Shown piece by piece: positions 1 to 27,670 of a DNA stretch of 27,696 bases (its first letter is position 1; the number at the start of each line of letters is the position of its first letter). The position numbers and the translations under genes were made by a program. Source of the DNA: an uncultured Candidatus Rokubacteria bacterium (lineage in GTDB: Bacteria; Methylomirabilota; Methylomirabilia; Rokubacteriales; CSP1-6); NCBI GenBank assembly GCA_963789955.1, contig CAWBMV010000038.1:1-27696 (forward strand), in the 5' to 3' direction. The notes beneath the pieces were generated by a model. It ran no database searches. It was given only the letters and a program-made list of their open reading frames with translations, and was not told the origin of the DNA.

Positions 1-177
1 CCGGCCCGACGTCACGGGCACGAAGCCGGCGATCATCCGCAAGGTCGTCGTCTTGCCGCACCCGCTCGGACCGAGCAGCACGACCAGCTCGCCCTGCTCG
101 ATCGCCAGCGAGAAGTCGCGAACGGCGTGGAAGTCGCCGTAGCGCTTGGAGACCGACTCGAGCTCGATGCGCGCCAT
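1..177 (-). CDS. ABC transporter ATP-binding protein, PotA/MalK-like (N-terminal part, runs off the window)
   Basis: Manual translation from ATG at 177 gives [52 protein letters not shown], with Walker [13 protein letters not shown] lies upstream. Not in the ORF track. Confidence 0.93.
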
Positions 178-283
178 GGGAATCAGCTCCAGTTGGGCGG
201 GAGCGGCGCCGCGTCCTGCCCTTCTCCAGCTCCCCCCACGACATTGATCAGGACCTGGAGCCCGTCCCCTCGCTGGCGGTTCA

Positions 284-1085
284 TCACAGCACCCGCGCGA
301 GCTTCACGTAGTGGTCCGTCGCGAGCATGGCCGCGCCGATCACGAGGATCTGCAGCAGCGACACCGCCGCGATGACCGGGTCGATCCGCCACTCCAGATA
401 CTGGAGGATCGCGATCGGCAGGGTCGTCCGGCCGCGGGCCGATCAGAAACAAGGTCATCTCGAGGTTGCCGAACGAGATGACGAAGCCAAAGAGCGCCGC
501 GGCGACGACGCCGGGCCGGATCAGCGGCAAGGTGACGCGCCGGAACGTCGTCCACGGGCCGGCCCCGAGATTCTGCGCCGCCTCCTCCACCGTGCGGTCG
601 AAGCCCATCAGGCTCGCGGTGACGAGCCGCACCGTCCACGGGATCGTGATGACGACGTGGGCGAGCACGAGACCCGGCAGCGAGGCGACGAGCGGCAGCC
701 GCGTGAGGATCTCCGTCTCGATCTGGAACACGTAGATCGCGGTGCCCGCCACGACACCCGGAACGACGAGCGGCGTCAGCAGCAAGAGGCCGAGGCCTTC
801 GCGTCCCGGGAACCGGTAGCGCGTCAGGCACAGGCTGGCCGGGACGCCGAGGGCGAGGCCGGCCAGCATCGCGAACACGCCGACCTCGAGGCTGGTCACG
901 AAGCCGTCGACGAAGTTGCGCTGGTCGAGGATCGCGCGGAACCAGCGCAAGGTGTAGCCGGACGGCGGGAACACCACCACCTCGTCGCGAAAGAAGCTGA
1001 GCCACGAGACGAGCACGAGCGGAAGCAGGATGAAGCCGAGCGCCAGACCGGCGGCGGTGAGGAGCGCGGCGCGGCCGACCGTCAT
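284..1085 (-). CDS. ABC transporter permease, PotC-like (one apparent +1 indel near 434)
   Basis: Hydrophobic protein starting MTVGRAALL, with EAA motif [21 protein letters not shown]. After removing one base near 434 it continues [25 protein letters not shown]...VL to TGA at 284-286. ATGA overlap with the upstream amidohydrolase. Confidence 0.9.
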
Positions 1086-2319
1086 GCGGCGGGCAGGCGA
1101 TTTCTGTACAGCGCGCCGCCCTTCATGATCAGCGAGAGATGCTCGCCCTGGCCCTGCAGCAGGGAGAGATCGCGGAGCGGATTGCCGTCCACCACCAGGA
1201 GGTCGGCGAACGCGCCCGGCGCGAGGGTCCCGAGCTCGCGCGGCAAGCCGAGCAGCTCCGCGCCGACCATCCGTCGCCGAGCGGATGATCTCGTGCGGCG
1301 AGAGCACCTGCGAGCGGATCAGGAACTCGCGCGACTGATCCGGCTGAAGCTGGCCGAGCAGGTCGCTGCCGAACGCCATGCGCACGCCGGCTTCACGCGC
1401 CAGCTCGAGCGAGCGCAGCCCCGCCGCCATCAGCGACCTTGTTCTTCTCGAGGCTGTCGGCGCCCATGCCCCAGCGGCCGCCGTGGCGCTCGATCGCGTC
1501 GTAGGCCACCAGGGTCGGCACCAGGAAGGCCCCGCGCGAGGCCATCAGCTTGGCCGTCGAGGCATCGATCAGGTTACCGTGCTCGATGACGCGCACGCCG
1601 TTCTCGACCGCGCGCGCGATCGCCTCGGCCGCGTACGCGTGGGCGCACACGTACTTCTTGAAGACCGCGGCCTCCTCGACTGCGGCGCGGATCTCGTCCG
1701 TCGTGTACTGCAGGCTCTCGAGCGGATCGTAGGGCGAGGCGACGCCGCCTGAGGCCATGATCTTGATGTGGTCCACGCCCTGACGGAGCTGCTCGCGCAC
1801 CGCGCGGCGCACCTCGTCCACGCCGTCGGCGACGCCGGCCGTGAACGCGAGTGCATTGCAGCAATGGCACGCCGATCCCGTATCGGTCCGCCGGCGCGAA
1901 TCGCTGTGTCCGCTGGTCTGGCCGATCGGCCGGCCGGCCACGAAGAGCCGCGGACCCGGCAGGTGGCCCTGCGCCACCCCCTCACGGATGCCCCAGTCGG
2001 CGCCGCCCGTGTCGCGCACGGTGGTGAACCCGCGGTCGAGCATCGCGCGCATGAGGCCGGCGCCCCGCGCGGTCATCAGGGTCAGCGGGATCGCCTCCAG
2101 CGCGCGGATGTTCACTTCGGAGAGGAAGACGTGCACGTGACTGTCGATCAGCCCGGGCATCACGGTGCGCCCGCCGGCATCGAGGGTGAGCGTGGCCGAG
2201 ACTTTGATCGGCCCGGCGGACACCTCTCGGATGCGCTCGCCTTCCACGACGACCGACGCGTTCTCGGTGAGGTTGCCCGAGGCGGGATCCAGCGCGGTCG
2301 CGTTCCGGATCAGGAGCAT
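1082..2319 (-). CDS. Metal-dependent amidohydrolase, prolidase-like subgroup (two apparent indels near 1434 and 1271)
   Basis: Starts MLLIRNA. Motifs are PGLIDSHVH (HxH), RGFTTVRDTGG, HIKIMASGG, AHAY, IEHG, FGSD and C-terminal GTLAPGAFADLLVVDGNP. These are spread over three ORF-track frames (1393-2502, 183-1430, 1082-1270). Confidence 0.92.
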
Positions 2320-2326
2320 GGCCGCA

Positions 2327-2347
2327 GGTAGGATACTCCAACCTACC
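2327..2347. promoter_or_regulatory. Candidate bidirectional -10 element overlapping an inverted repeat between divergent genes
   Basis: TAGGAT on + (2329-2334) overlaps TATCCT on - (2335-2330). Inverted repeat GGTAGG-N9-CCTACC at 2327-2332 and 2342-2347. Confidence 0.45.
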
Positions 2348-2419
2348 GGCCAGTCTTGATGGGCCCGGCGCCGCAAAGCCGACCGGCCGATCCCGGCACT
2401 TACTAGCGAGGAGGGGGCG

Positions 2420-4027
2420 ATGGACCTGGAGTCGGCGGTTCGGGCGGCAGCCGGAGGCGACCTCGACGCCTTCGCCGAGATCGTCAGGCGCTTCCAGCAC
2501 ATGGCCTTCGGCTACGCGCTGTCGTTCGTTCGCGACCTCGGGCAGGCGGAAGACATCGTCCAGGAAGCGTTCGTGGCGGCCTGGTACGCCCTGCCGACCC
2601 TCGCCGACCCTGCCGCGTTCGCCGGCTGGTTTCGCGGCATCGTGCGCCACCGCGCTCACCGGGTGCTGCGGCGCAAGCATCTCGAGGCCCTGCCGCTGAC
2701 CGAGGCCGACGCGGTGGCCGTGGACGAGCCGGCGCCCGATCGCCGGGTCGAGCGTCGCCAGGAAGTCGGCGCCGTGCTGGCGGCGATCGCCGGGCTCACG
2801 AGGCCCCTCCGCGAAGTCGTCACGCTCTACTACGTCCACGACTGCTCGCAACAGGACATCGCGACGTTCCTGGGGCTGCCGGTCACGACGGTGAACAACC
2901 GGCTGCACGCCGCGCGCGCGCAGCTCAAGCGGAGGACTCTGACCATGGTGAAAGACACGCTCGAGGCTCACCAGCTGCCCGACGACTTTGCGGCCCGGAT
3001 CGGCCGCATCGTGCGCGCGCGCGGCGGCGTCGTCGACGCACGTTTCGATCCATTGTCGCTGCCCGATCTGCTGACCGAGATCGTCGCGAGCGACGATGCC
3101 CGCCAGCGCGCGGTGACCCTGCAAGTCGTGCAGCGGCTCCCCGATGGCATCGTCCGCTGCGTTGTCACCTCGGCCGCCGAGTCGCTCGAGCCGGGCATGA
3201 CAGTGCTGAGTGCCGGCCGCCACGTTCAGACGCCGGTAAGCAAGGAATCGTTCGAGCGTAGCGTGCGGCTCCTCACCGGGCCGCCCGCGCCGCTCGGGGC
3301 ACCGGCGGAGATCCTCGAGACCGGGATCAAGGTGATCGACATCATGTGCCCCCTGGTGCGCGGAGGCACCGTCGCCATCGCGGGAGAGCTGCGCGCTGGG
3401 ACGACCGTCGTCACGGAAGAGCTGGTTCGCCGACTGAGCGGCGGGGCGGACGGCGTCTCGCTCTTCGCACTGGCTCCGTGGACACTGGTCTCGATCGCGG
3501 ACGCACTGAAGGAGGACGGCTACAGCGAAGGCACGGTGGGGCCGATCCAGACCTTCTATTTCCGCTCGGAGGAAGGTGCCTGGACGCCCGAGCGACTGGC
3601 GGGCCTGGCCGGGGTCGACGTGGTGGTCCGCCTGTCCGTCGCGCTCGCAGGTCGCGGCATCTATCCGACCGTGGATCCGCTCACCTCGCGGTCGCGATTG
3701 ATCGAATCGGGATGCCTCGATCGTGAGCATCTGGCGCTCGCGGCGCGGATTCGCACCGCGCTCCGCGCGCTCCTGGCGCCGGACGCCAGCACGCCGGCGG
3801 CCGAGCCGCTGGCGCTCGAACGCGCCGAGAAGCTCCTGCGGTTCTTCGCTCAGCCGTTCTACGTGGCCGAGCCGTACACCAAGCGTTCCGGCGTCACCGT
3901 CGGCCTCGCCGAGTCGCTCAGGGTGTGCCGCGAGATCCTCGACGGCGTGCACGACGCCGTCCCGACGAAGGCGTTCTACTTCACCGGTGGGCTCGACGCG
4001 GTCCTGACGAGCGCGGCCGCCCCATAG
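2420..4027 (+). CDS. ECF-type sigma-70 factor fused to a degenerate F1 ATP synthase beta-subunit-like C-terminal domain
   Basis: Residues ~1-172 contain sigma2 (AEDIVQEAFVAAW...FAGWFRGIVR) and sigma4 (LREVVTLYYVHDCSQQDIATFLGLPVTTVNNRLHAARAQL). Residues ~176-535 match AtpD motifs: GRIVRARGGVVDARF, LETGIKVIDIMCP, GIYPTVDPLTSRSR, RAEKLLRFFAQPFYVAE, ILDGVHDAVPTKAFYFTG. Strong RBS GAGGAGGGGG upstream. Confidence 0.88.
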   Translation: MDLESAVRAAAGGDLDAFAEIVRRFQHMAFGYALSFVRDLGQAEDIVQEAFVAAWYALPTLADPAAFAGWFRGIVRHRAHRVLRRKHLEALPLTEADAVAVDEPAPDRRVERRQEVGAVLAAIAGLTRPLREVVTLYYVHDCSQQDIATFLGLPVTTVNNRLHAARAQLKRRTLTMVKDTLEAHQLPDDFAARIGRIVRARGGVVDARFDPLSLPDLLTEIVASDDARQRAVTLQVVQRLPDGIVRCVVTSAAESLEPGMTVLSAGRHVQTPVSKESFERSVRLLTGPPAPLGAPAEILETGIKVIDIMCPLVRGGTVAIAGELRAGTTVVTEELVRRLSGGADGVSLFALAPWTLVSIADALKEDGYSEGTVGPIQTFYFRSEEGAWTPERLAGLAGVDVVVRLSVALAGRGIYPTVDPLTSRSRLIESGCLDREHLALAARIRTALRALLAPDASTPAAEPLALERAEKLLRFFAQPFYVAEPYTKRSGVTVGLAESLRVCREILDGVHDAVPTKAFYFTGGLDAVLTSAAAP

Positions 4028-4034
4028 TCATGGC

Positions 4035-4063
4035 TTGCCTCGGTGCCGTCGAGGCGGCACAAT
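4035..4063 (+). promoter_or_regulatory. Putative sigma70 promoter of the hydantoinase genes
   Basis: TTGCCT (4035-4040), 17-nt spacer, CACAAT (4058-4063), ending 10 nt before ATG 4074. An 8-bp inverted repeat cggtgccg/cggcaccg brackets the -10. Confidence 0.55.
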
Positions 4064-4073
4064 CGCGGCACCG

Positions 4074-6131
4074 ATGGCGCGCCACTGGCTCGGGATCGAT
4101 ATCGGCGGGACCTTCACCGACTTCGCCCTCTTCGACACGCAGACGGGCGAGCTGGTCGGCCTGAAGGTCCCCTCGACGCCCCACGAGTTCGCGGCCGCCG
4201 TTCGCACCGGCCTCGAGCGCCTCGCCGACGAGCACGGCGTCGACCTCCGCGAGATCGGCACCGTCGTCCACGGCACCACGATCGCCGTGAACACCTTGAT
4301 CCAGCGGACCGGCGCGCGGCTCGGCCTGCTCGTCACCGACGGGTTCCGCGACGTCCTCGAGCTCCAGCGCCTGCGGATGCCGAACCCGTTCGATCTGCAC
4401 GGCTCGCGGCCCTTGCCGCTGATTCCGCGCGCCCGTGTCGCCGAAGTCCGCGAGCGGCTGCGCGCCGACGGCACCATCGACACGCCGCTGGACGAGAGCA
4501 GCGTGCGCGCGGCGGTGCAGCATCTGACCCGCGGCGGTCAGAGTGTCGAGGGCCTGGTGATCTCGCTGCTGCACTCGTATCGGCGGCCCGAGCACGAGCA
4601 GAAGGCTCGGGCCATCGCCGAGCAGACGGCTTCCGGGGTTCCGGTGACCGCCTCCTCCGACGTCTGGCCGCAGGCGCGCGAGTACGAGCGCACCGCGCTG
4701 GCCGTCCTCGACGCGTACGTACAGCCCAAGGTGCAGCGCTACCTCGAAGGGTTCGAGCAGGCGCTCGCCGCGCGCGGGGCCCCGGCCATGCCGCACGTCA
4801 CGAAGTCGAACGGCGGCATCATGCCCGTCGCCGCCGCACGCACGCAGACGGCCGCGACGCTTCTGTCCGGGCCGGCCTCCGGCGTCATCGGCGCCGCCTA
4901 CGTCGCGAGCCGCGCCGGCCTGCCGAACATCATCACGCTCGACGTCGGCGGGACCAGCGCCGACATGGCGGTCGTCGAGAACGGACGCCCGCGCGTGAGC
5001 ACGAGCGAGCACATCGGCGGCGTGCCGGTGATGATGCCGGTCGTGGGCGTGACCGCCATCGGCGCGGGCGGCGGCTCCGTCGCGTGGGTCGACGACGTCG
5101 GGCTGCCGAAGGTCGGGCCGCAGAGCACGGGCGCCGAGCCGGGCCCCGCCTGCTACGGACGCGGGGGCAAGGACGCGACGCTCACGGACGCGTTCCTGGT
5201 CTCCGGCTTTCTCGACCCGGATCGCTTCCTCGGTGGGCGCATGCGCCTGGACCGGTCGCTGGCCGAAGCGGCCGTCGCGCGCTTCGCAGGCCGGCTGGGG
5301 ATGACACCCGACGAAGCGGCCGAGAGCATCGTGCGGGTTGCCGTGTCGAACATGTACGCGGAGTTCACCAAGATCCTGTCGCGCGCCGCCGTCGATCCCC
5401 GCGACTTCAGCCTGGTCGCCTTCGGCGGCGCCGGGCCGGTGGTCGGCGCGCTCGTCGCGCGCGAGGTCGGCATCCCCGCCGTGTTCGTCCCGCGCTCGCC
5501 GGGCACGCTCTGCGCCCTCGGCGCGCTCAGCGCCGACATCGTGAACGACGCGGTGCGGACGGTGCACACGCGCGTCGAAACGGAGCTGCGCGAAGCGTCG
5601 GTGCTCCGCCGGCAGTACGAGGATCTGCGCGCCGAGCTTTCCGAATGGCTCGCGCGTTTCGGCGCCGGCGCGGGCCCGGCCTCGTTCCGGCACGCCGCCG
5701 ACATGCGTTACGTCGGACAGTCGTACGAGATCGACGTGCCGGTCGAGCTCGGCTGGCTGGCACCGGGCGGCGGCGCGCCCCTGCTCGCCGCGTTTCATCG
5801 CGCGCACGAGCGCGCGTTCGGTCACGCCGACCGCGAGGCGCCCGCCGAGATCGTGAACCTCCGCATCCAGCTGCGCGCCGAACGCCAGCGGGTGCCGCTC
5901 GAGGAGCTGCCGGCCGGTTCGGCCGCCCCGGTCGCGCGCGCCGCGCGGAGGATCTGGCTCGACGGCCGGCCGACCGAGGCGCGGGTCTACGATCGCTCGG
6001 CGCTCGGCCGCGGCGCGCGGCTCGAGGGTCCGGCGATCGTCGAGCAGCCCGACACGACGGTGCTCGTGCCGGGCGGCCACGTCGGCGAGGTCGATCGCTT
6101 CGGGAACTTGCTGCTCCGGAGGGAAGGCTGA
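4074..6131 (+). CDS. Hydantoinase/oxoprolinase subunit A (N-methylhydantoinase A / acetone carboxylase beta-like)
   Basis: Motifs GIDIGGTFTD, VHGTT, EYERT, LLSGPASG, DVGGTS, IGAGGGS, GAEPGPACYGRGG, FGGAG, DMRYVGQSYE, GPAIVEQPDTT. Confidence 0.95.
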   Translation: MARHWLGIDIGGTFTDFALFDTQTGELVGLKVPSTPHEFAAAVRTGLERLADEHGVDLREIGTVVHGTTIAVNTLIQRTGARLGLLVTDGFRDVLELQRLRMPNPFDLHGSRPLPLIPRARVAEVRERLRADGTIDTPLDESSVRAAVQHLTRGGQSVEGLVISLLHSYRRPEHEQKARAIAEQTASGVPVTASSDVWPQAREYERTALAVLDAYVQPKVQRYLEGFEQALAARGAPAMPHVTKSNGGIMPVAAARTQTAATLLSGPASGVIGAAYVASRAGLPNIITLDVGGTSADMAVVENGRPRVSTSEHIGGVPVMMPVVGVTAIGAGGGSVAWVDDVGLPKVGPQSTGAEPGPACYGRGGKDATLTDAFLVSGFLDPDRFLGGRMRLDRSLAEAAVARFAGRLGMTPDEAAESIVRVAVSNMYAEFTKILSRAAVDPRDFSLVAFGGAGPVVGALVAREVGIPAVFVPRSPGTLCALGALSADIVNDAVRTVHTRVETELREASVLRRQYEDLRAELSEWLARFGAGAGPASFRHAADMRYVGQSYEIDVPVELGWLAPGGGAPLLAAFHRAHERAFGHADREAPAEIVNLRIQLRAERQRVPLEELPAGSAAPVARAARRIWLDGRPTEARVYDRSALGRGARLEGPAIVEQPDTTVLVPGGHVGEVDRFGNLLLRREG

Positions 6132-8122
6132 TGCGTCTGGACGCGCTCACCGTCGAGATTCTGCGGAACTACCTGCAGGGCGCCGTCGAGGAGATGGCGT
6201 ACGTCGTCGAGCGTACGGCGTACACCACGTTCGTGAAGGAGACCGCCGACTTCACCTGCGGTCTGCTGAATCCGTCCGGCGAGTTCTTCGCCTACCCGGT
6301 CGAGCTCGGCGTCGCGAGCTTCGGCGGCATCACCTACGCGGAGACCCTGGAGGCGGTGGGCCCCCTGGAACCGGGCGACGTCGTGATCACGAACGACCCG
6401 TACGGCTCGGCGGCGGCGGCGACACACCTGCCCGACATCCATCTGGTCAAGCCGATCTTCTGGGACAACCGGCTCGTTGCCTACGGCGCGGGCTTCCTGC
6501 ATAGCTCCGACGTCGGCGGCATGGTGCCGGCGTCGATCACGCCACGTGCCTCGGAGATCTTCCAGGAAGGCCTGCGGCTACCGCCCAAGAAGCTCTTCAA
6601 GCGCGGCGAGGTCAATCGCGACCTGCTCGACGTGATCCTCGCCAACTGTCGCATCCCCGAGCAGAACTGGGGCGATCTGCAGGCGCTGGTCGCCGGGCTC
6701 ACCACCGGCGAGCGGCGGATGCACGAGCTGATCCGCCGCTTCGGCCCCGACACGGTCGACAAGGCGATGGACGACCTGATCGACTACGCGACGCGCAAGG
6801 TCGAGGCGCTCATTCGCCGGATGCCGACCGGACGCTACGAGTTCTGGGACTACATCGAGGACGACGTGGTGTCGAAGATCCCGATCCGGCTGAAGGTGGC
6901 GCTGACGATCGCCGACGGCGAGATCCACCTGGACTTCACCGGCAGCGACATCCAGGTGAGCTCGGCGCTCAACGTGCCCACGGCCGGGAAGGTCCACCCG
7001 TTCATGTCCGTCGCGCTCGTCAACTACTTCGCGACGCGCGACCGGACGATCCCGCTCAACGCGGGCGTGCTGCGCCGCGTGCGCATGACCCTGCCCGAAG
7101 GCTCGGTCGTGAATCCGAAGTTCCCGGCGGCGTGCGGCGTGCGCTACGCGACCGTGCTCCGAATCTACGACGCGGTGCTCGGCGCGCTCGCTCGGGCGGT
7201 GCCCGAGGATATTCCGGCGGCCAGCGGCGGTCAGGGCTGCATGGTGGCGCTCTCGCTGCCGGACCCGGAGGCCGGACGCCGTCACGTCACCGTGATCGAG
7301 CCGATGATCGGCGGCGGCGGCGGGCGGCCGGCGCGCGACGGCGTCGACGGCTGCGACGCCTCGCTGGGATTTCTCAAGACGACGCCGGCCGAGACGCTCG
7401 AGGCGGAAGTCCCGATCGTCGTCCGACGGTTCCATCTGATCCCGGATTCCGCCGGCCCCGGCCGGTTCCGCGGCGGCTTCGGCGTGCGCCTGGACTTCCA
7501 GGTGTTCCAGCCCGAGGGCCTGGTGACTGCGCGCGGGATGGAGCGCCTGCGCTTCGCGCCCTGGGGCGTGGCCGGCGGTACCGCCGGCGCGACCGGCAGC
7601 GTGATGCTGAACCCGGACACCGCCGCCGAGAAGCCACTGCCGAAGATCGACGTGCTCGCGCTCGAGCCCGGCGACGTGCTCAGCGTCCGGACGCCGGGCG
7701 GCGGTGGTCACGGCGATCGCTTCACGCGGCCGCCGTCCCACGTACTCGCCGACGTCCTGTCCGGCCTCGTCTCGCGCGAGCGCGCGCGCGAGTCCTATGG
7801 CGTCGTCCTCGACGGCGATCGGGTCGATGAATCGGCCACGACGTCGCTACGTGCCGCCCAGCTCGAGGCCGCACCGCCACGCGCGGGCACGGGGGCCGTG
7901 TTCGATTTCGGGGCGGCGCGCCGTGAGCACGAGCGCCGCTGGCCGCCTGCGCTTCAGGACGCGTTCATCGCATTGCTGATGAGCCTGCCGGCGCCCTATC
8001 GCGCGTATGTCCGCCGCACGCTCTACGGTCGCGTCGAGGCGCTCGCCGCCGAGCGCCCGGTGACGATCGACGACCTGCATCGGCTCTTGAAAGATCTGCG
8101 CGCCTCGGTCGCGCTGAAGTGA
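6131..8122 (+). CDS. Hydantoinase B/oxoprolinase subunit B
   Basis: TGATG overlap with subunit A. Motifs EEM...RTAY, PGDVVITNDPY, THLPD, HSSDVGG, EIFQEGLRLPP, DSAGPGRFRGG, TPGGGGHG. The real start is MRLDAL at 6131, not the ORF-track start at 4043. Confidence 0.95.
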   Translation: MRLDALTVEILRNYLQGAVEEMAYVVERTAYTTFVKETADFTCGLLNPSGEFFAYPVELGVASFGGITYAETLEAVGPLEPGDVVITNDPYGSAAAATHLPDIHLVKPIFWDNRLVAYGAGFLHSSDVGGMVPASITPRASEIFQEGLRLPPKKLFKRGEVNRDLLDVILANCRIPEQNWGDLQALVAGLTTGERRMHELIRRFGPDTVDKAMDDLIDYATRKVEALIRRMPTGRYEFWDYIEDDVVSKIPIRLKVALTIADGEIHLDFTGSDIQVSSALNVPTAGKVHPFMSVALVNYFATRDRTIPLNAGVLRRVRMTLPEGSVVNPKFPAACGVRYATVLRIYDAVLGALARAVPEDIPAASGGQGCMVALSLPDPEAGRRHVTVIEPMIGGGGGRPARDGVDGCDASLGFLKTTPAETLEAEVPIVVRRFHLIPDSAGPGRFRGGFGVRLDFQVFQPEGLVTARGMERLRFAPWGVAGGTAGATGSVMLNPDTAAEKPLPKIDVLALEPGDVLSVRTPGGGGHGDRFTRPPSHVLADVLSGLVSRERARESYGVVLDGDRVDESATTSLRAAQLEAAPPRAGTGAVFDFGAARREHERRWPPALQDAFIALLMSLPAPYRAYVRRTLYGRVEALAAERPVTIDDLHRLLKDLRASVALK

Positions 8123-8150
8123 AGCCATCACTTCGGATCAGGAGAACGAC

Positions 8151-8498
8151 ATGAGCACCGTCGACTGGAGCTATCACCGTCAGGGCTGAACCACCTGCGC
8201 CAAAACGCAGGGGTTCCTTGCGAAGAACAAGGTCGCCGTCGCGGCGCAGACCGACGCCAAGAAAGCCACGATCAAGGGCGACGCCGCCCTCGGCGCATTG
8301 AAGGATGTGGACGAGCTGTACGTCGCCAAGGGCAAGAAGATCGTGCACCTCGACCTGAAGCGCGAGAAGCCGCCGCGCGCCGAGCTGCTCGGCCTCCTGC
8401 TCGGCCCGACCGGCAATCTGCGCGCACCGACGCTCCGGAAGGGACGCAAGCTAATCGTCGGCTTCGACGAAGCGACTTACAAGCGCCTGCTGGGCTGA
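8151..8498 (+). CDS. ArsC/Spx-like thioredoxin-fold protein, predicted selenoprotein (UxxC; in-frame TGA at 8187-8189)
   Basis: RBS AGGAG, then ATG 8151. Translation is MSTVDWSYHRQG-U-TTC-AKTQGFLAK...LLGPTGNLRAPTLRKGRKLIVGFDE, 115 aa with read-through. TGA occupies the first Cys position of a CxxC motif. The xRAPT...LIVGF tail is ArsC/Spx-like. A hairpin follows the UGA. Confidence 0.85.
8188..8216 (+). promoter_or_regulatory. Candidate SECIS-like hairpin at and just after the UGA
   Basis: Upper stem cctgcg (8194-8199) with cgcagg (8206-8211) and loop ccaaaa. Lower stem gaacc/ggttc with a bulged A. Confidence 0.45.
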
Positions 8499-8524
8499 GT
8501 CGCGCGCCCGGGAGACGTGCCGCC

Positions 8525-8677
8525 GCTGCCCGCGGGCCAGGGGGTGGGCCTGGGGTGCCTCCCGCGACCTGTGTAGGCACCGTTACTTGAACGACAGGCT
8601 CGCAGATCCACCTCACGTAGCGTTCGCGCGCAGGTCGCGGGAGGCACCCCAGGCCCACCCCCTGGCCCGTGGGCGGC
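8525..8677. repeat. Long inverted-repeat element (MITE/REPIN-like) between convergent genes
   Basis: Perfect 39-bp arms at 8533-8571 and 8631-8669, extendable to ~49 bp with G-T pairs, around a more AT-rich spacer of ~59 nt. Confidence 0.85.
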
Positions 8678-8690
8678 CGCCGCGCGTACC

Positions 8691-9863
8691 TTAGCCGCGC
8701 GCTTTCTTGAACGCGCGCTCGAAGCCCGGTAGCGCGCGCACGACCGTGTCGCGCTCGACCGTCAGCGAGATGCGGATGTGGCCGGGCATGCCGAAGCCCG
8801 AGCCCGGTACGGTCAGCACGCCTTCTTCGGCCAGCAGGCGGACGAACGCCACGTCGTCGTCGATCGGCGTCTTCGGGAACACGTAGAAGGCGCCCTGAGG
8901 CTTCACGCACTGGTAGCCGATGCGGGTGAGGCCCTCGTACATCAGGTCGCGCTTCTCACGGTACGGCCCCACGTCGATCACCAGGTCACCGACCTCGGCC
9001 ACCACCCACTGCCAGAGCGCCGGCGCGTTCACGAAGCCGAGCACCCGGCTCGTGAACGTGCACGCCTCGAAGAGCTCGGCGGCTTCCGGCAGACGCGGCG
9101 AGAATGCCAGGTAGCCGATGCGCTCGCCGGGAATGGCCAGCGACTTCGACCAGGACGTCGCGACGATCGAGCGCGTGACCAGCGGCGGCACCTCGGGCGG
9201 CACGACGTCGTCGAACACCAGCGCGCGATACGGCTCGTCGCTGACGAGCACGATCGGCCGCGCGGCGCGCGCCAGCATCGCCTCGATCTCGACGAACGTC
9301 GACCGTGGATAGATGACACCGCTGGGATTATTGGGCGAGTTCACGAGAATCGCGCGCGTTCGCGAGGTGATCGCGGCTTCGAGCTTTGCGATATCGGGCG
9401 TGAGATCGGCCTTCGGCGGCACCACCACCAACTTGCCGCCGTGGTTCTCGGCGTAGAACGTGTACTCGGCGAAGAACGGCGCGACCGTCAGCACCTCGTC
9501 GCCGGGATCGAGCAAGGCCTTCAGCACGGTGTTGAGCGCGGCGCCGGCGCCCACCGTCATCAAGACGTGGCCGGCCGTGTACGGCAGGCCGGTCGAGGAC
9601 CGCAGCCGTCCCGCCACCGCCTCGCGCACCTTCACGTGGCCGGCGTTGGGCATGTAGGCGTGCAAGTGTGGCGCGGTGCTCTCGAGCACGCGCCGCGCCG
9701 CGGCCAGCACGGCCGGCGGCGGCTCGATCTCCGGATTGCCCAGGGTGAAGTCGAAGACCTTGTCGGCGCCGCGCTCCTGCTTCAAGCGAGCGCCCTCCTC
9801 GAACATGCGGCGGATCCACGACGACTTCGTCAGATTCTCGGTGACGGCACGCGAGACGATCAT
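8691..9863 (-). CDS. PLP-dependent class I aminotransferase (aspartate aminotransferase-like)
   Basis: SSWIRRMFEEG, DFTLGNP, NSPNNPSG, SDEPY, SWSKSLAIPGERIGY (PLP lysine), PQGAFY, VPGSGFG. Confidence 0.95.
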   Translation of the reverse strand: MIVSRAVTENLTKSSWIRRMFEEGARLKQERGADKVFDFTLGNPEIEPPPAVLAAARRVLESTAPHLHAYMPNAGHVKVREAVAGRLRSSTGLPYTAGHVLMTVGAGAALNTVLKALLDPGDEVLTVAPFFAEYTFYAENHGGKLVVVPPKADLTPDIAKLEAAITSRTRAILVNSPNNPSGVIYPRSTFVEIEAMLARAARPIVLVSDEPYRALVFDDVVPPEVPPLVTRSIVATSWSKSLAIPGERIGYLAFSPRLPEAAELFEACTFTSRVLGFVNAPALWQWVVAEVGDLVIDVGPYREKRDLMYEGLTRIGYQCVKPQGAFYVFPKTPIDDDVAFVRLLAEEGVLTVPGSGFGMPGHIRISLTVERDTVVRALPGFERAFKKARG

Positions 9864-18421: not shown

Positions 18422-21400
18422 TCAGTCGTCGACGCCGCCCGGGATCTCGCGGGCGGGCGTGCGGCGCCAGGCGCGGCGTAACCGGTGGCGCCAGGCGCGC
18501 CGCTCGCCCTGCCGCGCCTGCCGGCGCCACGGCGCCAGCGACGGCGTCGAGAGCTGGAGCGCGCGGGCGGCATCTTCGAAGAGCGAATAGGCGACCGGCG
18601 TCACCAGCAGGGTCAGCAGCAGGCAGAGCGTCTGGCCGCCGATGACCACGACCGCGATGGCGCGCCGCTCCTCGGAGCCCGGTCCGGTCCCCACCCACAA
18701 CGGCAGCATGCCGGCCACGAGGGCCAACGTCGTCATCAAGATCGGCCGCAGCCGATCGCGGTTGCCCTGCATGATGGCCGCGTCGCGGTCCATGCCCTGC
18801 GCGCGCAGTGCGTTCATGTGGTCGATCTGCAAGATCGCGTTCTTCTTGACGACGCCGAACAGGACCAGGATGCCGAGCGCCGAGTAGAGGTTGAGCGTGT
18901 TGCCCGTGTAATAGAGCGAGAACAGTGCGAACGGCACCGAGAGCGGCAAGGACAGCAAGATCGTCAGCGGATGGATCAGGCTCTCGAACTGCGAGGCCAG
19001 GATCATGTACATGAAGATCACGGAGAGCAGGAAGACCCACAGGAACTCGGTGAAGGTCTTCTCCATCTCCCTCGCCTTGCCGGTGAGGAACGTCTGATAC
19101 GCGGTCGGCAGATTCATGTCCGCGACCGCCTTCTTGAGCAGCTCGTTGCGGTCGGCCTGGCCGTAGCCCGGCGCGATGCCGGCTCTCAGCCGCGTCTCGC
19201 GCTGCCGGTCAGTGCGGTCGATACGCGAGGCGGTGGCGGCCGGCTCGATCTTGACGACGTTGTCGAGCCGCACGAGACCGCCGCCGGGCGCCAGATTGAC
19301 CTGCGCCGGCGCGCCCGTCGCAGAGTTGGTCGACGTCGTGTCGCGCGAGACGTAGAGCCGCTGGATCGTGCCCAGGTTGCCGCGGAACTGCGGCATCAGG
19401 CGAATCTGAACGTCGTAGTCGTCGTTGACGACCGGATCGTGGAAGCGTGACACCTGATCGTCGCCGCCCACCATCAGCCGCAGCGCGGTCGCGATCTGCT
19501 GGGTGTCCACGCGCAGGTCGGCGGCCCGCTGGCGGTCGATCGCCACGCGGAGCTCGGGCTTGTCGAGCCGCAAGGTGGTGTCGATGTCCACGATGCCGCC
19601 GATGTCGCGCGCCTTCACCTTCAAGGTCTCGCCGTACTCGGCGAGCTTCTCGAGCTCGGGTCCGCGCAGCGCGAGATCGATGTCGAAGGTACCGCCGCCG
19701 ATGTTGAAGCCCGCGATGTTCCGGACCTGCGTACGCATGTCCGTGAACTTCTTGAAGCGCTGCCGGAGGGCCATCATCACCTCGCGCTGAGCGTAGTTGC
19801 CCCGGAACGCGTCCAGCGGCCGGCCGTGGATCAGCCCGTTCCAGAGCCGTCCCGGCGTCAACGTGCGCTCCTCGTGGGAGACCGTGCGCACGTACATGTA
19901 GCCCTGGTTCACCTTGCCCAGGAAGCTCCCGCCGCCCGACGCCAGAGTGAGCGCCACGCCCTTCGTCTCGCGCGCTTCCTTCGAGAGCGCCTGCATCGCC
20001 TCGTCCATCGCGGCGAGGCTCATCTTCTCGGGGCCGAAGACCAGTACCTCGAACTCCGACTCGTCGACGTCGCTCGGGATGTACTCCTGCTTGACCTGGC
20101 GATAGATCGGCACCGCGGAGGCCAGGGTGAGCACGCTGATGACGACGATGACCCAGCGGTGCCGCATCGACCACGCCAGGCTCCACGCGTAGGCGCCGTC
20201 GATCCAGGCGTAGAAGCCGCCGCGCGAGCTCGCCTGGCCACCCTCGGCGGCGTGGCCGCTCGCGGCGTCCTCCGTTCGCAGGAGACGCGCGCACATCATC
20301 GGGGTCAGCGAGAACGACACGATCAGGCTGACCAGCACGGACACGGCGGCCGTGAGGCCGAACTGGTACAGGAACCGCCCGGAGATCGAGGACATGAACG
20401 AGACCGGCACGAAGATGACGACCAGGGAGAACGTCGTCGCCATGACCGCCAGCCCGATGTCGGCGGTCGCCTCGCGGGCGGCCTCGAACGGCCGCATCTT
20501 CTTTTCCTCGACGAAACGGAAGACGTTCTCGAGCACGACGATGGCGTCGTCGATGACGATGCCGACCATCAGCACCAGGGCGAGCATCGTCACGCTGTTC
20601 AGGGTGAAGTTGAGCGCCCACATCATCCCGAACGCCGAGATGACCGAGGTCGGGATGGCCACCGCGGCGATGAACGTCGAGCGCCACGAGCGCATGAAGG
20701 CGAGCACGACCAGCGAGGCCAGGATCGAGCCGAGCACCAGGTGCAGGTTGATCTCGTGGAGCGCCGCGTAGATGTAGCGCGACTGGTCGCGGATCACCTC
20801 GAGCTTCACGTCCGGCGGAACTTGACCGCTCAGGCGCACCAGCTTGGCCTTCACGCCCTCGATCACGGCGACCGTGTTCTCGCCCGACTGCCGGCGGACC
20901 TCCATGATGACCGTCGGCACGCCGTTGAGCCGCGCGGCCGAGCGCTGCTCCTTGGTGCCGTCCTCGGCGTAGCCGATGTCGCGCACGCGGACCGGGACGC
21001 CGCTCAACGTGGCCACGACCAGCTCGTTGAACGTACGCGGCTCTGCCATCCGGCCCATCGTCCGGAGCGACGCCTCGTTCAGCCCGGCCGTCACGTTGCC
21101 GCCCGGGCAGGTCGGCGTTCTGACGGATGAGGGCGTCGCGCACGGTCGTGATCGGGATCTGGTAGGCCGCCAGCCGGTCGGGATCGACCCAGATATTGAC
21201 CGCGCGGAGCAGCCCGCCGACGATCCGGACCTCGCCGACTCCCGACGAGCGCTCGAGCTGTGGACGCACGATCTTGTCGGCGATCTCGGTCAGCTCGCGG
21301 AGCGAGCGCTCGCCGGACAGCGCGATCGTGACGACCGGCGCCTGGTCGTTGTCGAACTTCGAGACGATGGGCGGCAGGATCTCGCGCGGCAGGTTGCGCA

Positions 21401-21749
21401 TCGCGATGGCGACCTTGTCGCGCACGTCCTGGGCCGCCACGTCGATCTGCCGATTCAGGTTGAAGGTGACGATGATGACCGCGGTGCCGGGGCCGGAGAT
21501 CGAGCGCAGCTCGTTGATCCCCTGGATCGTGTTGATCTGCTCCTCGAGCTTCTGCGCGACCTGGGTCTCGGTTTCCTCGGTCGAGGCGCCCGGCAGCTCG
21601 ACGCGCACGCTGACGGTGGGCAGATCGACGGTCGGGAAGCGATCGACGCCGAGCCGGAACCAGCTCGCGGCGCCGATGACCACGAACGCCATGACCAGCA
21701 TGGTCGCGAACACCGGACGCTTGATGCAGACCTCGGCGAGTTTTTGCAT
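18422..21749 (-). CDS. RND efflux permease, AcrB/MdtB family (one apparent +1 indel near 21103)
   Basis: MQKLAEVCIKRPVFATM..., GIVIDDAIVVLEN, LASQFES, GVVKKNAIL, RLRPILMTT. The N-terminal ~215 aa lie in ORF 19209-21749 and the rest in ORF 18422-21094. Confidence 0.93.
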
Positions 21750-25681: not shown

Positions 25682-25863
25682 TTGTCGTAGGCGCGCCTCG
25701 GCCGGCGGGGCCCCAGCCCCGCGACGGCCTGCAGCGCGCATCTTGTCTTAGGCGCGCCTCGGCCGGCGGGGCCCCAGCCCCGCGACGGCCTGCAGCGCGC
25801 ACCTTGTCTTAGGCGCGCCTCGGCCGGCGGGGCCCCAGCCCCGCGACGGCCTGCAGCGCGCAC
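25682..25863. repeat. Tandem array of three ~61-bp palindromic (REP/BIME-like) units between convergent genes
   Basis: Units start at 25682, 25743 and 25804. The core taggcgcgcctcggccggcggggccccagccccgcgacggcctgcagcgcgca is identical in all three. Each folds as gcgcgc..ggccg-gcggggc-ccca-gccccgc..cggcc..gcgcgc. Confidence 0.95.
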
Positions 25864-26959
25864 TACCGAATGGCCGCCAGCGGCTCGAGTCCCATCTCGC
25901 CCGTGCAGACGCCGAACCACTGGATGACTTCCTTGTGGAGCGGGATGCCGTGGGCGCGGCGGTGCTGGATCTCTTCGGCCTCGGAGAGCCCTGGATAGAG
26001 GACGCGCTCCTGACCCGGAGCCGGCGTGGCGGTTCTGAGGGTCTTGAGCATGCCGTCCATCGTGTCCTTGAACTGCTCCGGGTCGGTGAAGGCCTCGATG
26101 TCGTAGGCGGCGAAGTGATTCTTCGAGCCGCTGCCGGCGGCGAGCATCGTGGGCAGGGCGCCGGAGAGCACGGTCGACAGGACTTCGGCCATCATCGCGA
26201 AGCCGTAGCCCTTGTGGGAGCCCTGCTCGCGCGTGCCGCCGAGCGGCGCCTGATGGTATTCGTCACGGTCGAAGACCGGCTTCTCCTCCATGATCGGAAT
26301 GCCTTCCTTGTCCGTCACCCAGCCCGGCAGCAGCGGCGAGCCGACGCGAATGGCCAGCCGGATCTTGTTGCCGGCGATCGCGGAGGTCGCGGCGTCGAAG
26401 AGCATCGGCGCCTCGTGCCGCGCCGGGGCCGCGAGCGCGATCGGGTTCGTGCCGAGCAGCGGCTTGGCGGCGAACGTCGGCACCACGCTGAGTCCGGCGC
26501 CGGTGAAGCACACGCCGACCATGCCCTGCTCGGCGGCCTGCATCGCGTAGTGGCCGATCGCGCCGAAGTGGCCGCTGTTGAACACGGTCACCACGCCGAC
26601 GCCGACGCGCCGCGCCTTCTCGATCGCCAGCCGCATCGCCTTGGGGCCCGACCATGATGCCCGAGGCGCCGCTCGGCGTCGATCACCGCCGTGCCCGGTG
26701 ACTCGCGCGCGATGCGCCAGCCCGGATGCGGATCGAGCTTGCCGGCCTTGTAGTCGCGTACGTAGGCGCGCAGCATGTTCGACACGCCGTGCGTCTCGAC
26801 GCCCCGGAGATCCGTCATCGTGAGGACGTCGGCGCCCTCCGCGGCGTCCTCCGGCGTGAGACCGAGCTTTTCGAAGATCTGCGTGACGGTGCGACGCAGC
26901 GCCGCCTCGGTCACGAAGACCTGGTCCTTCACCGGAACCTTGAAGCGCTCGAGAATCAT
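25863..26959 (-). CDS. Ldh_2 family oxidoreductase (malate/L-lactate/ureidoglycolate/sulfolactate dehydrogenase-like; two apparent +1 indels near 26661 and 26643)
   Basis: MILERF...DLRGVETHGV, NSGHFGAIGHY, PTFAAKPLLGTNPIA, FDAATS, LGG...GSHKGYG, ERVLYPG. Confidence 0.92.
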
Positions 26960-26991
26960 GGCTGGCTCTCCCCTCGCGAATCGTCGGCGCG

Positions 26992-27621
26992 CTAGGCGCC
27001 GCGCACGTAGCGCCGGCACACCAGGCGCAGGTGATCGCGGAAATGTGGCTGCAGCCGGCTCGTCCAGTCGCTCTGGCGCGCCTGCTTCCACTCGGCCGAC
27101 TCCTGCACCTCGGGCGTCGCCAGGTGGTAGAGCGCCACGTACTTGCGGTTCCCGGTGCCGCGGAAGCGGCGGGCGCCGAGGACGCCAGGCACGGCGGCGA
27201 GCGCCGGGATGTGCTCCTTGTCGTACCACTCGTTGAACTCGGCTTCGTGCTCCGGCGCGATGTTCATGGCATTGAGGAGCAACCCACCCGCACCGGCCGG
27301 CGGCAGCTGGTCGCCCGGAAGGATCTGATCGCCCTCGAAGCGCATCAGGCGCTCGACCCGGCTGGTGACCCGTTTCGACCACGGTGACAGGTTCGCCCCG
27401 CCGATCGCCAGATAGGCCGGGCTCGCGAGCACCTTGACGTTCTCGAGGTCGTACGTGGCGACCGAGATCTTGCGGTCGCTCACGCCGATCCAGCGGTCGC
27501 ACACGAGGAAGCCCGGAACGCGCTGCCGCTCCGGCAGATGCTCTGTGTCGTACCAGTCCTGGAACTCGTCCTCGGCCGCCTGCCCGATGTTCATCGCCGC
27601 GATCAAGGTGCCCTTTGCCAT
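26992..27621 (-). CDS. Tandem EthD/DUF4286-like dimeric alpha+beta barrel protein
   Basis: Two internal repeats: EDEFQDWYDTEHLPERQRVPGF and EAEFNEWYDKEHIPALAAVPGV. RBS GGAGGAG before ATG 27621. Confidence 0.8.
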   Translation of the reverse strand: MAKGTLIAAMNIGQAAEDEFQDWYDTEHLPERQRVPGFLVCDRWIGVSDRKISVATYDLENVKVLASPAYLAIGGANLSPWSKRVTSRVERLMRFEGDQILPGDQLPPAGAGGLLLNAMNIAPEHEAEFNEWYDKEHIPALAAVPGVLGARRFRGTGNRKYVALYHLATPEVQESAEWKQARQSDWTSRLQPHFRDHLRLVCRRYVRGA

Positions 27622-27641
27622 GGTCGGCTCCTCCCGGCGGA

Positions 27642-27670
27642 AGATTGCCACGACGCTCGCGACTCGGCAA
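27642..27670 (-). promoter_or_regulatory. Putative sigma70 promoter for the DUF4286-like/Ldh_2 genes
   Basis: TTGCCG (27670-27665), 17-nt spacer, then TG-n-CAATCT extended -10 (27647-27642). Confidence 0.5.

Follow-up and report, generated by a model that had tools for sequence, protein, structure and literature searches.

A conserved pseudo-ATPase derived from F1 beta and fused to an extracytoplasmic function sigma factor in Candidatus Rokubacteria: a candidate nucleotide sensor

The window analysed here is a whole stretch of 27,696 nucleotides from an uncultured Candidatus Rokubacteria bacterium (assembly GCA_963789955.1, contig CAWBMV010000038.1). On its forward strand, an open reading frame (ORF) at 2420-4027 encodes, in one whole frame, a protein of 535 residues in which an extracytoplasmic function (ECF) sigma factor is fused to a degenerate paralog of F1 beta, the ATP synthase subunit encoded by atpD. 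The beta-like domain is, with little room for doubt, a selected pseudo-ATPase. Its catalytic losses are shared among homologues and the ratio of nonsynonymous to synonymous substitutions (dN/dS) is 0.14-0.31, which together point to selection and not to the decay of a captured gene, as a sequence-only reading of the window had proposed. The function of the domain is put forward more tentatively. The preferred reading, to which we give slightly less than even weight on the basis of sequence comparisons, is that of a non-hydrolysing, probably ADP-type nucleotide sensor that would gate a self-activating sigma factor.

Shared catalytic losses and the retained beta fold

Residue numbers of beta follow E. 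coli AtpD without Met1, with the sequence taken from its named record. The features of the coding region on which the comparison is based are as follows.

2420-4027, plus strand: fusion gene, ECF sigma factor and degenerate F1-beta domain (ORF, Pfam, NCBIfam, homologues)
2480-2677, plus strand: Sigma-70 region 2, residues 21-86 (PF04542, E=2e-12)
2771-2929, plus strand: Sigma-70 region 4, residues 118-170 (PF08281 at 118-169, E=5.5e-14; PF04545)
2996-3229, plus strand: F1-beta N-terminal beta-barrel, residues 193-270 (PF02874 at 197-264; strands in the model)
3383-3406, plus strand: degenerate Walker A GELRAGTT, residues 322-329, corresponding to E. coli GGAGVGKT 149-156 (alignment)
3452-3538, plus strand: strand GVSLFALA and a short helix in place of about 110 beta residues (alignment, model)
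3656-3667, plus strand: GIYP, with Y415/P416 corresponding to E. coli Y331/P332 of the adenine pocket
3782-3805, plus strand: DASTPAAE, replacing the DELSEED loop (alignment)
3851-3880, plus strand: QPFYVAEPYT, the pocket side with Q402, F404, A407, F410 (as Y) and T411

In the query, Walker A does read GELRAGTT, as noticed from the sequence alone: T328 occupies the position of K155, and G149, G154 and the following V157 are kept. GVSLFALA (3452-3475) aligns with E. coli GYSVFAGV, and the alignment bears out the reported absence of ERTRE behind it, as E181, R182 and E185 have no counterpart before GPIQTFY; nor do D242 of Walker B, R246 and the pore loop. The core deletion, estimated in the sequence-only reading at roughly 100 residues including Walker B, amounts to about 90 (E. 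coli 156-291 is 135 residues, the query has 45), and the family spans 22-38 residues between E. coli 176 and 294, versus 118 in E. coli. A second deletion of about 24 residues, not mentioned in the sequence-only reading, lies in the linker between barrel and core (E. coli 91-127, 36 residues; family median 12). The GIYP and QPFYVAE segments are kept in one uninterrupted ORF, also as had been read.

A word search returned 905 homologues, of which the nearest named ones are labelled Candidatus Rokuibacteriota (84%) and Methylomirabilota. Two sets were compared: a close set of 120 homologues, 119 of them scored for the P-loop, and a deep set of 53 members, in which the query is joined by 52 full-length sigma-fused representatives drawn from a library that had been clustered at 50% identity. 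All 52 representatives carry the same deletion. GK[TS] occurs in none of the 119 scored close homologues and in one deep member, and the Walker B pattern in none of the 120 close homologues or the 53 deep members. As controls served AtpD proteins from a genome-collection scan (79 of 80 loci, the remaining one being a fusion; 74 usable), all 74 of which keep GKT and GERxRE.

Two claims of the sequence-only reading hold for the query but not for the whole family. The position of K155 is T in 106 of the 119 close homologues, whereas 43 of the 53 deep members have K (29) or R (14); judging from these alignments, K155 loss is specific to the query's clade. The P-loop loss common to the family is that of T156, which is T in 4/53 and mostly L, M, V, A or I, and the P-loop glycines persist (G149 in 48, G152 in 43 and G154 in all 53). 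Likewise, the DELSEED loop is missing from the query, where the region is 8 residues shorter (20 vs 28 between E. coli 364 and 392), but the length is bimodal in the deep set, with 5-28 residues in 33 members and 45-49 in 20 (E. coli 28). Its acidic residues are mostly gone (acidic at 380 in 4/53), and L382 and D386 are often kept. In 20 of the 53 deep members (P0142, P0144, P0145, P0168, P0173 and others) one more helix is inserted at this loop; it is about 21 residues long, and a DPxFLE-like motif in it is conserved.

The dN/dS ratio was estimated by the method of Nei and Gojobori (NG86) for those 18 pairs that exceed 78% identity within a set of 22 coding sequences; the range cited above refers to residues 322-530 and resembles that of the sigma part (0.13-0.27). 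It could be argued that the domain is an accidentally captured atpD in decay, or that it retains weak ATPase activity. Chance insertion is one way in which ECF extensions can come about (PMC7671368), the branches in the tree are long, and the frame is broken in 4 of 31 loci (L107, L108, L109, L113) through assembly error or pseudogene formation, which weighs against a selected function; a further 4 of the 31 end at contig edges. Decay is, however, largely refuted by the number of homologues, by the deletion common to all full-length representatives and by dN/dS below 0.31. Residual hydrolysis is opposed by the absence of E181, R182, D242 and R246, as a single substitution of K155, R182 or R246 in E. 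coli costs about 99% of the activity (table in PMC3268026). Either form of this explanation is thus extremely improbable.

The likeness to beta is not a matter of chance, given the phmmer match to solved beta chains (E = 6e-42, in 2 or 3 pieces with a gap in the middle) together with the structural match of the predicted core. Pfam recognises Sigma70_r2, Sigma70_r4_2, ATP-synt_ab_N (197-264) and a short ATP-synt_ab match (302-350) in the 535-residue protein. The sigma half consists of sigma2 and sigma4 without sigma3, which fits the ECF class (TIGR02937, 78.8 bits, above the cut-off of 42.9), and the TIGR01039 (AtpD) score of 158 bits lies below the NCBIfam cut-off of 462.85. The fused domain is about 33% identical to the AtpD of its own genome, which holds a normal atpD with atpA, atpG and atpC on another contig (C36). 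Fragments of the fusion family have been wrongly labelled 'ATP synthase beta' by automated annotation.

The full-length model has a predicted local distance difference test score (pLDDT) of 88.6 and a predicted template modelling score (pTM) of 0.76, and its beta-like part matches F1 beta with Z 24 at a root-mean-square deviation (rmsd) of about 11 Å. Modelled without the barrel, residues 289-535 reach pLDDT 95 and pTM 0.92 and overlay on F1 beta with Z 23.7 and an rmsd of 3.1 Å over 230 of 247 residues. In a wide structure search this core finds beta first (22.3), followed by V/A-type and type III ATPases, alpha and Rho. The deleted nucleotide-binding and C-terminal core is therefore predicted still to fold like beta, with the barrel displaced. 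By the strand order that we assume for RecA-like sheets, the single remaining strand must fill the Walker B slot. It would then be a hybrid strand, and the replacement of the invariant G178 by F, L or M in 49/53 deep members is consistent with this. A complex prediction of sigma half, beta-like half and ATP was uninformative (score 0.00).

Compared with F1 beta (AtpD, TIGR01039), the fusion domain has the same fold features, namely the barrel, the RecA-like part with the P-loop strand and helix, the adenine pocket and the helical C-terminal domain. It differs in lacking K155/T156 function, E181, R182, D242, R246 and DELSEED, in being about 90 + 24 residues shorter, and in being joined to a sigma factor outside the atp operon. 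Other members of the beta family fold have altered roles too, such as F1 alpha, which binds nucleotide without hydrolysis, and the N-ATPase beta (TIGR03305) and Mycoplasma MMOB1670. These three remain ring subunits and are full length. The fusion domain groups with beta, not alpha, and its scores are far under their model cut-offs (127 of 752; 104 of 850). In a rapidly computed tree with 67 rows, the 27 sampled fusion domains and 6 similar proteins form one group with a support of 98 in the Shimodaira-Hasegawa-like approximate likelihood ratio test (SH-aLRT), which sits among beta and apart from alpha, although long branches could attract.

Several relatives of the domain occur in other arrangements. 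Six proteins (P0265, P0266, P0293-P0296) are degenerate betas of about 360 residues without a barrel, with a GVGKM/GVGKQ P-loop, a kept Walker B strand and a deleted pore loop; in the tree, P0265 and P0266 branch as the sister of the fusion domains and may represent a transitional form. In five further proteins (P0196, P0202, P0203, P0240, P0270) a deleted beta-like domain occurs with no sigma part; these are stand-alone genes, calls from an internal start or fragments, and in P0196 the domain lies behind a membrane-type N-terminal part.

The adenine pocket and its predicted ligand

Five adenine-pocket positions, V157, Y331, P332, F404 and F410, were taken from the relevant part of PMC5608556. 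In terms of residue class they are retained at 0.91, compared with 0.62 at the 165 remaining invariant positions that are retained and 0.69 when hydrophobic positions are taken by themselves; random draws reach 0.91 in 0.8% of cases from all invariant positions and in 1.4% from the hydrophobic ones, with buried and exposed positions pooled. A second list comprised the 15 residues within 5 Å of the nucleotide in bovine betaTP (PMC9615146, in part). Base-side residues are kept among the 53 deep members (V157 in 45, an aromatic at Y331 in 52, P332 in 53, Q402 in 44, F404 in 43, an aromatic at 410 in 45, T411 in 43), and those on the phosphate and Mg side are lost (T156 kept in 4/53, R246 in 2/53, T183 also lost, R182 outside the five commonest residues). 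Y354, Y367 and F312 are lost as well. Y331 and F410 swap among F, Y and W, an interchange that fits their predicted ring-stacking role. W stands naturally at the Y331 position in 16/53 deep members, and Y331W is tolerated in E. coli beta (PMC3268026).

The same source states that E. coli K155 and R182 are needed for binding MgATP but not MgADP, and for this reason an ADP-type ligand is predicted. As far as residue conservation can tell, the retained pocket probably binds an adenine nucleotide, ADP-like and without Mg. In beta, T156 and D242 presumably hold the Mg.

Some observations weigh against this reading. Retention of the buried aromatics F17, Y297 and F399 is similar to that of the pocket residues, and the latter also lie at the interface between the nucleotide-binding and C-terminal domains, so that their conservation may be structural rather than ligand-related. 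The loss of T156 and D242 may, on our assumption about their role, also remove the open/closed switch of beta. Moreover, the query belongs to the clade with the most degenerate P-loop, in which phosphate binding may be weak.

An alternative is a ligand-independent scaffold or protein-interaction module, fused and separately translated as an anti-sigma-like partner, in which the conserved residues only hold the fold and a protein partner or proteolysis provides the signal. The similar retention of buried aromatics fits it, as do the most invariant positions (I130, K131, D134, P138, E161, D335, S341, G433), all of which belong to the core. Ankyrin or HEAT repeats take the place of the domain in 8 of 29 sister ECFs, which shows protein binding to be an equally used design among these sigma factors, and all extension types have the linker after Met176 in common. 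The excess conservation of the pocket over hydrophobic invariant positions argues the other way, as do the P-loop glycines and the basic residue at 155 that persist in the deep family; in the conservation table, which is based on sequence and not on structure, no surface patch outside the pocket stood out. Such a module is rather unlikely. The nucleotide sensor has in its favour that the same sigma core carries several ligand-binding extensions (PheS-like 3, nucleotidyltransferase 2 and GNAT 1 of 29).

Promoter motif, internal start and genomic distribution

The features that bear on expression are the following.

2375-2400, plus strand: conserved two-part motif AAAG-N16-GGCACT, predicted to be a -35/-10 promoter of ECF type and probably autoregulatory (23/23 full-length loci)
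2408-2414, plus strand: ribosome-binding site GAGGAGG of the fusion gene (sequence; duplex energy -12.1, computed with an anti-Shine-Dalgarno sequence that we assume)
2931-2947, plus strand: internal Shine-Dalgarno (SD)-like GGAGG (Arg171-Arg172 codons CGG AGG) and in-frame ATG of Met176, predicted start of a 360-residue beta-like protein
2945-2995, plus strand: conserved linker MVKDTLEAHQLPDDFAA, residues 176-192, common to related ECFs with other C-terminal domains

The pattern A[AG]AG-N16-GG[CT]AC is found 19-46 nt before the start in all 23 full-length loci, always with a spacer of 16, and the copy at 2375-2400 is its sole match in the window (chance mean 0.02). The motif was likewise seen ahead of 4 of 6 additional beta-type loci, and of 2 among 34 other-extension loci (L125 and L146), three of the 34 being misparsed. 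The own genome, which is 87% complete, has no second strong site, the next best scoring 18.5 against a training minimum of 19.2. The strict pattern has a single occurrence in each of 5 relatives (97-100% complete), where it invariably precedes the fusion gene, and loose-pattern counts stay below the reversed control in all 10 genomes. A clpC-like gene was considered as a target and rejected; the site precedes it in one genome and is not kept in the own genome. Based on these pattern searches, the cassette appears to serve itself, or else its other targets are too degenerate to see. That no target promoter other than that of the gene itself was found in the own genome and its relatives counts against a sensor with a regulatory role, since it leaves the output unexplained.

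A sigma70-type promoter was not found, and Rfam gave no match in window positions 1-9000. Contigs from soil RNA libraries cover parts of the gene and also the promoter region at low depth, with a DNA origin being possible.

The second element, the junction before Met176, consists in the window of GGAGG (2931-2935), a 9-nt spacer and ATG. Of the 20 beta-type genes that have Arg at position 172, 19 encode it by the rare codon AGG (background 65/1503), and so do 13 of 14 other-extension genes (background 112/1170); eight other Arg columns have AGG in 0-4 of 19-28 beta-type genes; the relatives that enter these junction counts are non-independent. Met stands at 176 in 22/28 beta-type and 20/28 other-extension genes. 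An SD match of at least 5 nt is present in 12 of 27 beta-type genes versus 3.0 expected, and in 8 of 28 genes of the other type versus 7.2 expected. The simplest reading, which codon usage suggests, is that of a second start from which residues 176-535 would be made alone; alternatively, the conserved codons may be a pause or frameshift signal.

Within its own phylum the fusion has matches in 31 of 236 genomes, all in one family. Matches were also found in 4 of 122 genomes in the order of Rhodospirillales bacterium URHD0017 and in 3 of 251 genomes of a Planctomycetota sample; among 201 Armatimonadota genomes none covers the beta part and 20 have the same sigma core and linker. The Atlas cluster (139 members, match 0.98) has Thermomicrobiota as its commonest phylum. 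One relative (G092) carries two fusion copies (C157, C39), and the fusion of locus L112 is shorter, with 491 residues and an internal gap.

One ECF core and linker are found with many C-terminal domains (L115, L119, L123-L142, L146, L148-L152), the AGG-N9-ATG junction being conserved, and the sigma cores of the other-extension proteins group with the beta-type cores (SH-aLRT 92). Among 29 such proteins Pfam recognises ankyrin repeats in 5, a PheS core in 3, HEAT repeats in 3, a nucleotidyltransferase in 2, GNAT, T2SSF and Clp_N in 1 each and a weak T2SSE match in 1, and nothing in 12. In the three PheS-type fusions (L117:847-2100, L118:850-2097, L147:841-2085) the same ECF core is joined to a divergent PheS (tRNA-synt_2d) core, 24-30% identical to PheS of the window genome, with GRVFR-like and FAFGL-like motifs in 2 of 3. 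The PheS core is a second housekeeping enzyme captured as an ECF extension.

The flanks were surveyed at 31 loci. By similarity clustering and reading, without an anti-sigma profile, no neighbour recurring beyond the genus and no anti-sigma candidate was seen within 1.5 kb on either side. Neighbours differ between genera, and several loci have a convergent downstream gene. The fusion gene is never beside atp genes, and defence or resistance neighbours do not recur.

These observations bear on the proposal, built on analogy, that the domain is a decoy, which would bind an inhibitor, a toxic nucleotide or a foreign protein aimed at ATP synthase and switch on the sigma factor; the self-amplified gene would then flood the cell with free domain acting as a sponge, in the manner of ClpC2 with cyclomarin A. 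The restriction of the motif to the fusion gene, the conserved predicted start for a free domain, the patchy distribution, and the sister ECFs with divergent domains of essential machines (PheS core, Clp_N, T2SSF) would suit it, and ClpC2 provides a precedent (PMC10030653, in part). On the other hand, the domain does not preserve the aurovertin site (identity is below 0.3 at 11 of 16 mapped positions), the alpha- and gamma-contact regions are deleted or divergent, which would leave the nucleotide pocket as the only bait, and no defence setting recurs around the loci. A decoy is accordingly judged unlikely.

It could also be proposed that the free beta-like protein modulates the host F1, either by binding alpha or as an inactive subunit within the ring. 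In favour of this, the protein retains the N-terminal barrel, the internal start would free the domain from sigma, and a normal atpD is present in the own genome and in 5 of 5 carriers tested. However, the linker, pore loop and core elements are deleted, the model shows the barrel in a shifted position (rmsd about 11 Å with it, 3 Å without), no atp gene adjoins any of the 31 loci, and no motif was found within 800 nt upstream of three atp-region positions tested. This role is very unlikely.

In the window, a hydantoinase/oxoprolinase A gene (with a probable B gene; 4074-8122) begins 46 nt downstream on the same strand. It could be co-transcribed with the fusion gene here, and it is found only in 4 same-genus loci, including this one. 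Elsewhere in the window, genes apparently split by frame changes lie at 183-2319 (amidohydrolase and ABC permease), 18422-21749 (AcrB-type transporter) and 25863-27670 (Ldh_2 dehydrogenase as two ORFs), which suggests assembly indels or decay nearby, whereas the fusion frame is whole.

A proposed switch and its meaning

C-terminal extensions of ECFs are an established regulatory class, as set out in passages of PMC8999054, PMC8103513 and PMC7826278. The fusion shares with extension-type ECFs the sigma2 and sigma4 core, a long, conserved and soluble C-terminal extension, an upstream bipartite motif and the lack of an anti-sigma gene in the flanks surveyed. It differs in that the extension is an ATP synthase pseudo-ATPase and that the predicted internal start would also free it. 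The predicted -10 element of ECF264, a Firmicutes group with a DUF1835 extension and the -35 element GTAACCTT, also contains GGCAC (part of the supplement of PMC7826278). Identity with ECF264 was rejected, as the fusion protein has no DUF1835 match and its predicted -35 element is AAAG, not GTAACCTT. In the literature no F1-beta-derived ECF extension was found described, with the proviso that a 2019 review on ECF regulatory extensions may list the architecture. The terms 'ATP synthase' and 'ATPase' are absent from the main text of PMC7826278, ATP synthase appears twice, in unrelated contexts, in the part of its supplement that was searched, and the supplement of PMC7671368 has no match for such an extension. 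The mycobacterial ClpC2 is likewise homologous to part of an essential machine and controls the transcription of its own gene (PMC10030653); this is an analogy only, as ClpC2 is a repressor with a known ligand and the fusion a sigma factor whose ligand is predicted.

The current model for the sensor runs as follows. With the RecA-like sheet deprived of its two edge strands, and with the pore loop and the linker between barrel and core missing too, the domain would not form an alpha3beta3 ring. Its pocket would bind an adenine ligand without hydrolysis, and the ligand state would switch the sigma half on or off. The active sigma factor would transcribe its own gene from AAAG-N16-GGCAC, and the internal start at Met176 would also yield free beta-like protein, which might set a feedback threshold as a trans inhibitor or a ligand buffer. 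A wider version appears possible rather than probable, again from sequence comparisons: beta would have been rebuilt as a monomeric, Mg-free adenine receptor in a one-gene, self-targeting switch, plus a free sensor, and the same cassette would have taken up further inactive housekeeping domains (PheS, Clp N-domain, pilus-motor parts) as sensors or decoys of energy state or attack.

F1 beta is, to our knowledge, among the most conserved proteins, and the paralogs that we know to be described stay ring ATPases. If the proposal is true, a beta of about 340 residues that has lost precisely its gamma-phosphate and Mg ligands and is attached to a sigma factor would connect the adenylate state directly with transcription, or would be a bacterial integrated decoy. 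The domain would be a natural minimal beta for separating the parts that bind nucleotide from those that drive rotation. The family is readily testable, as it offers one soluble protein, a predicted promoter, a natural position for a Trp probe and a carrier, Rhodospirillales bacterium URHD0017.

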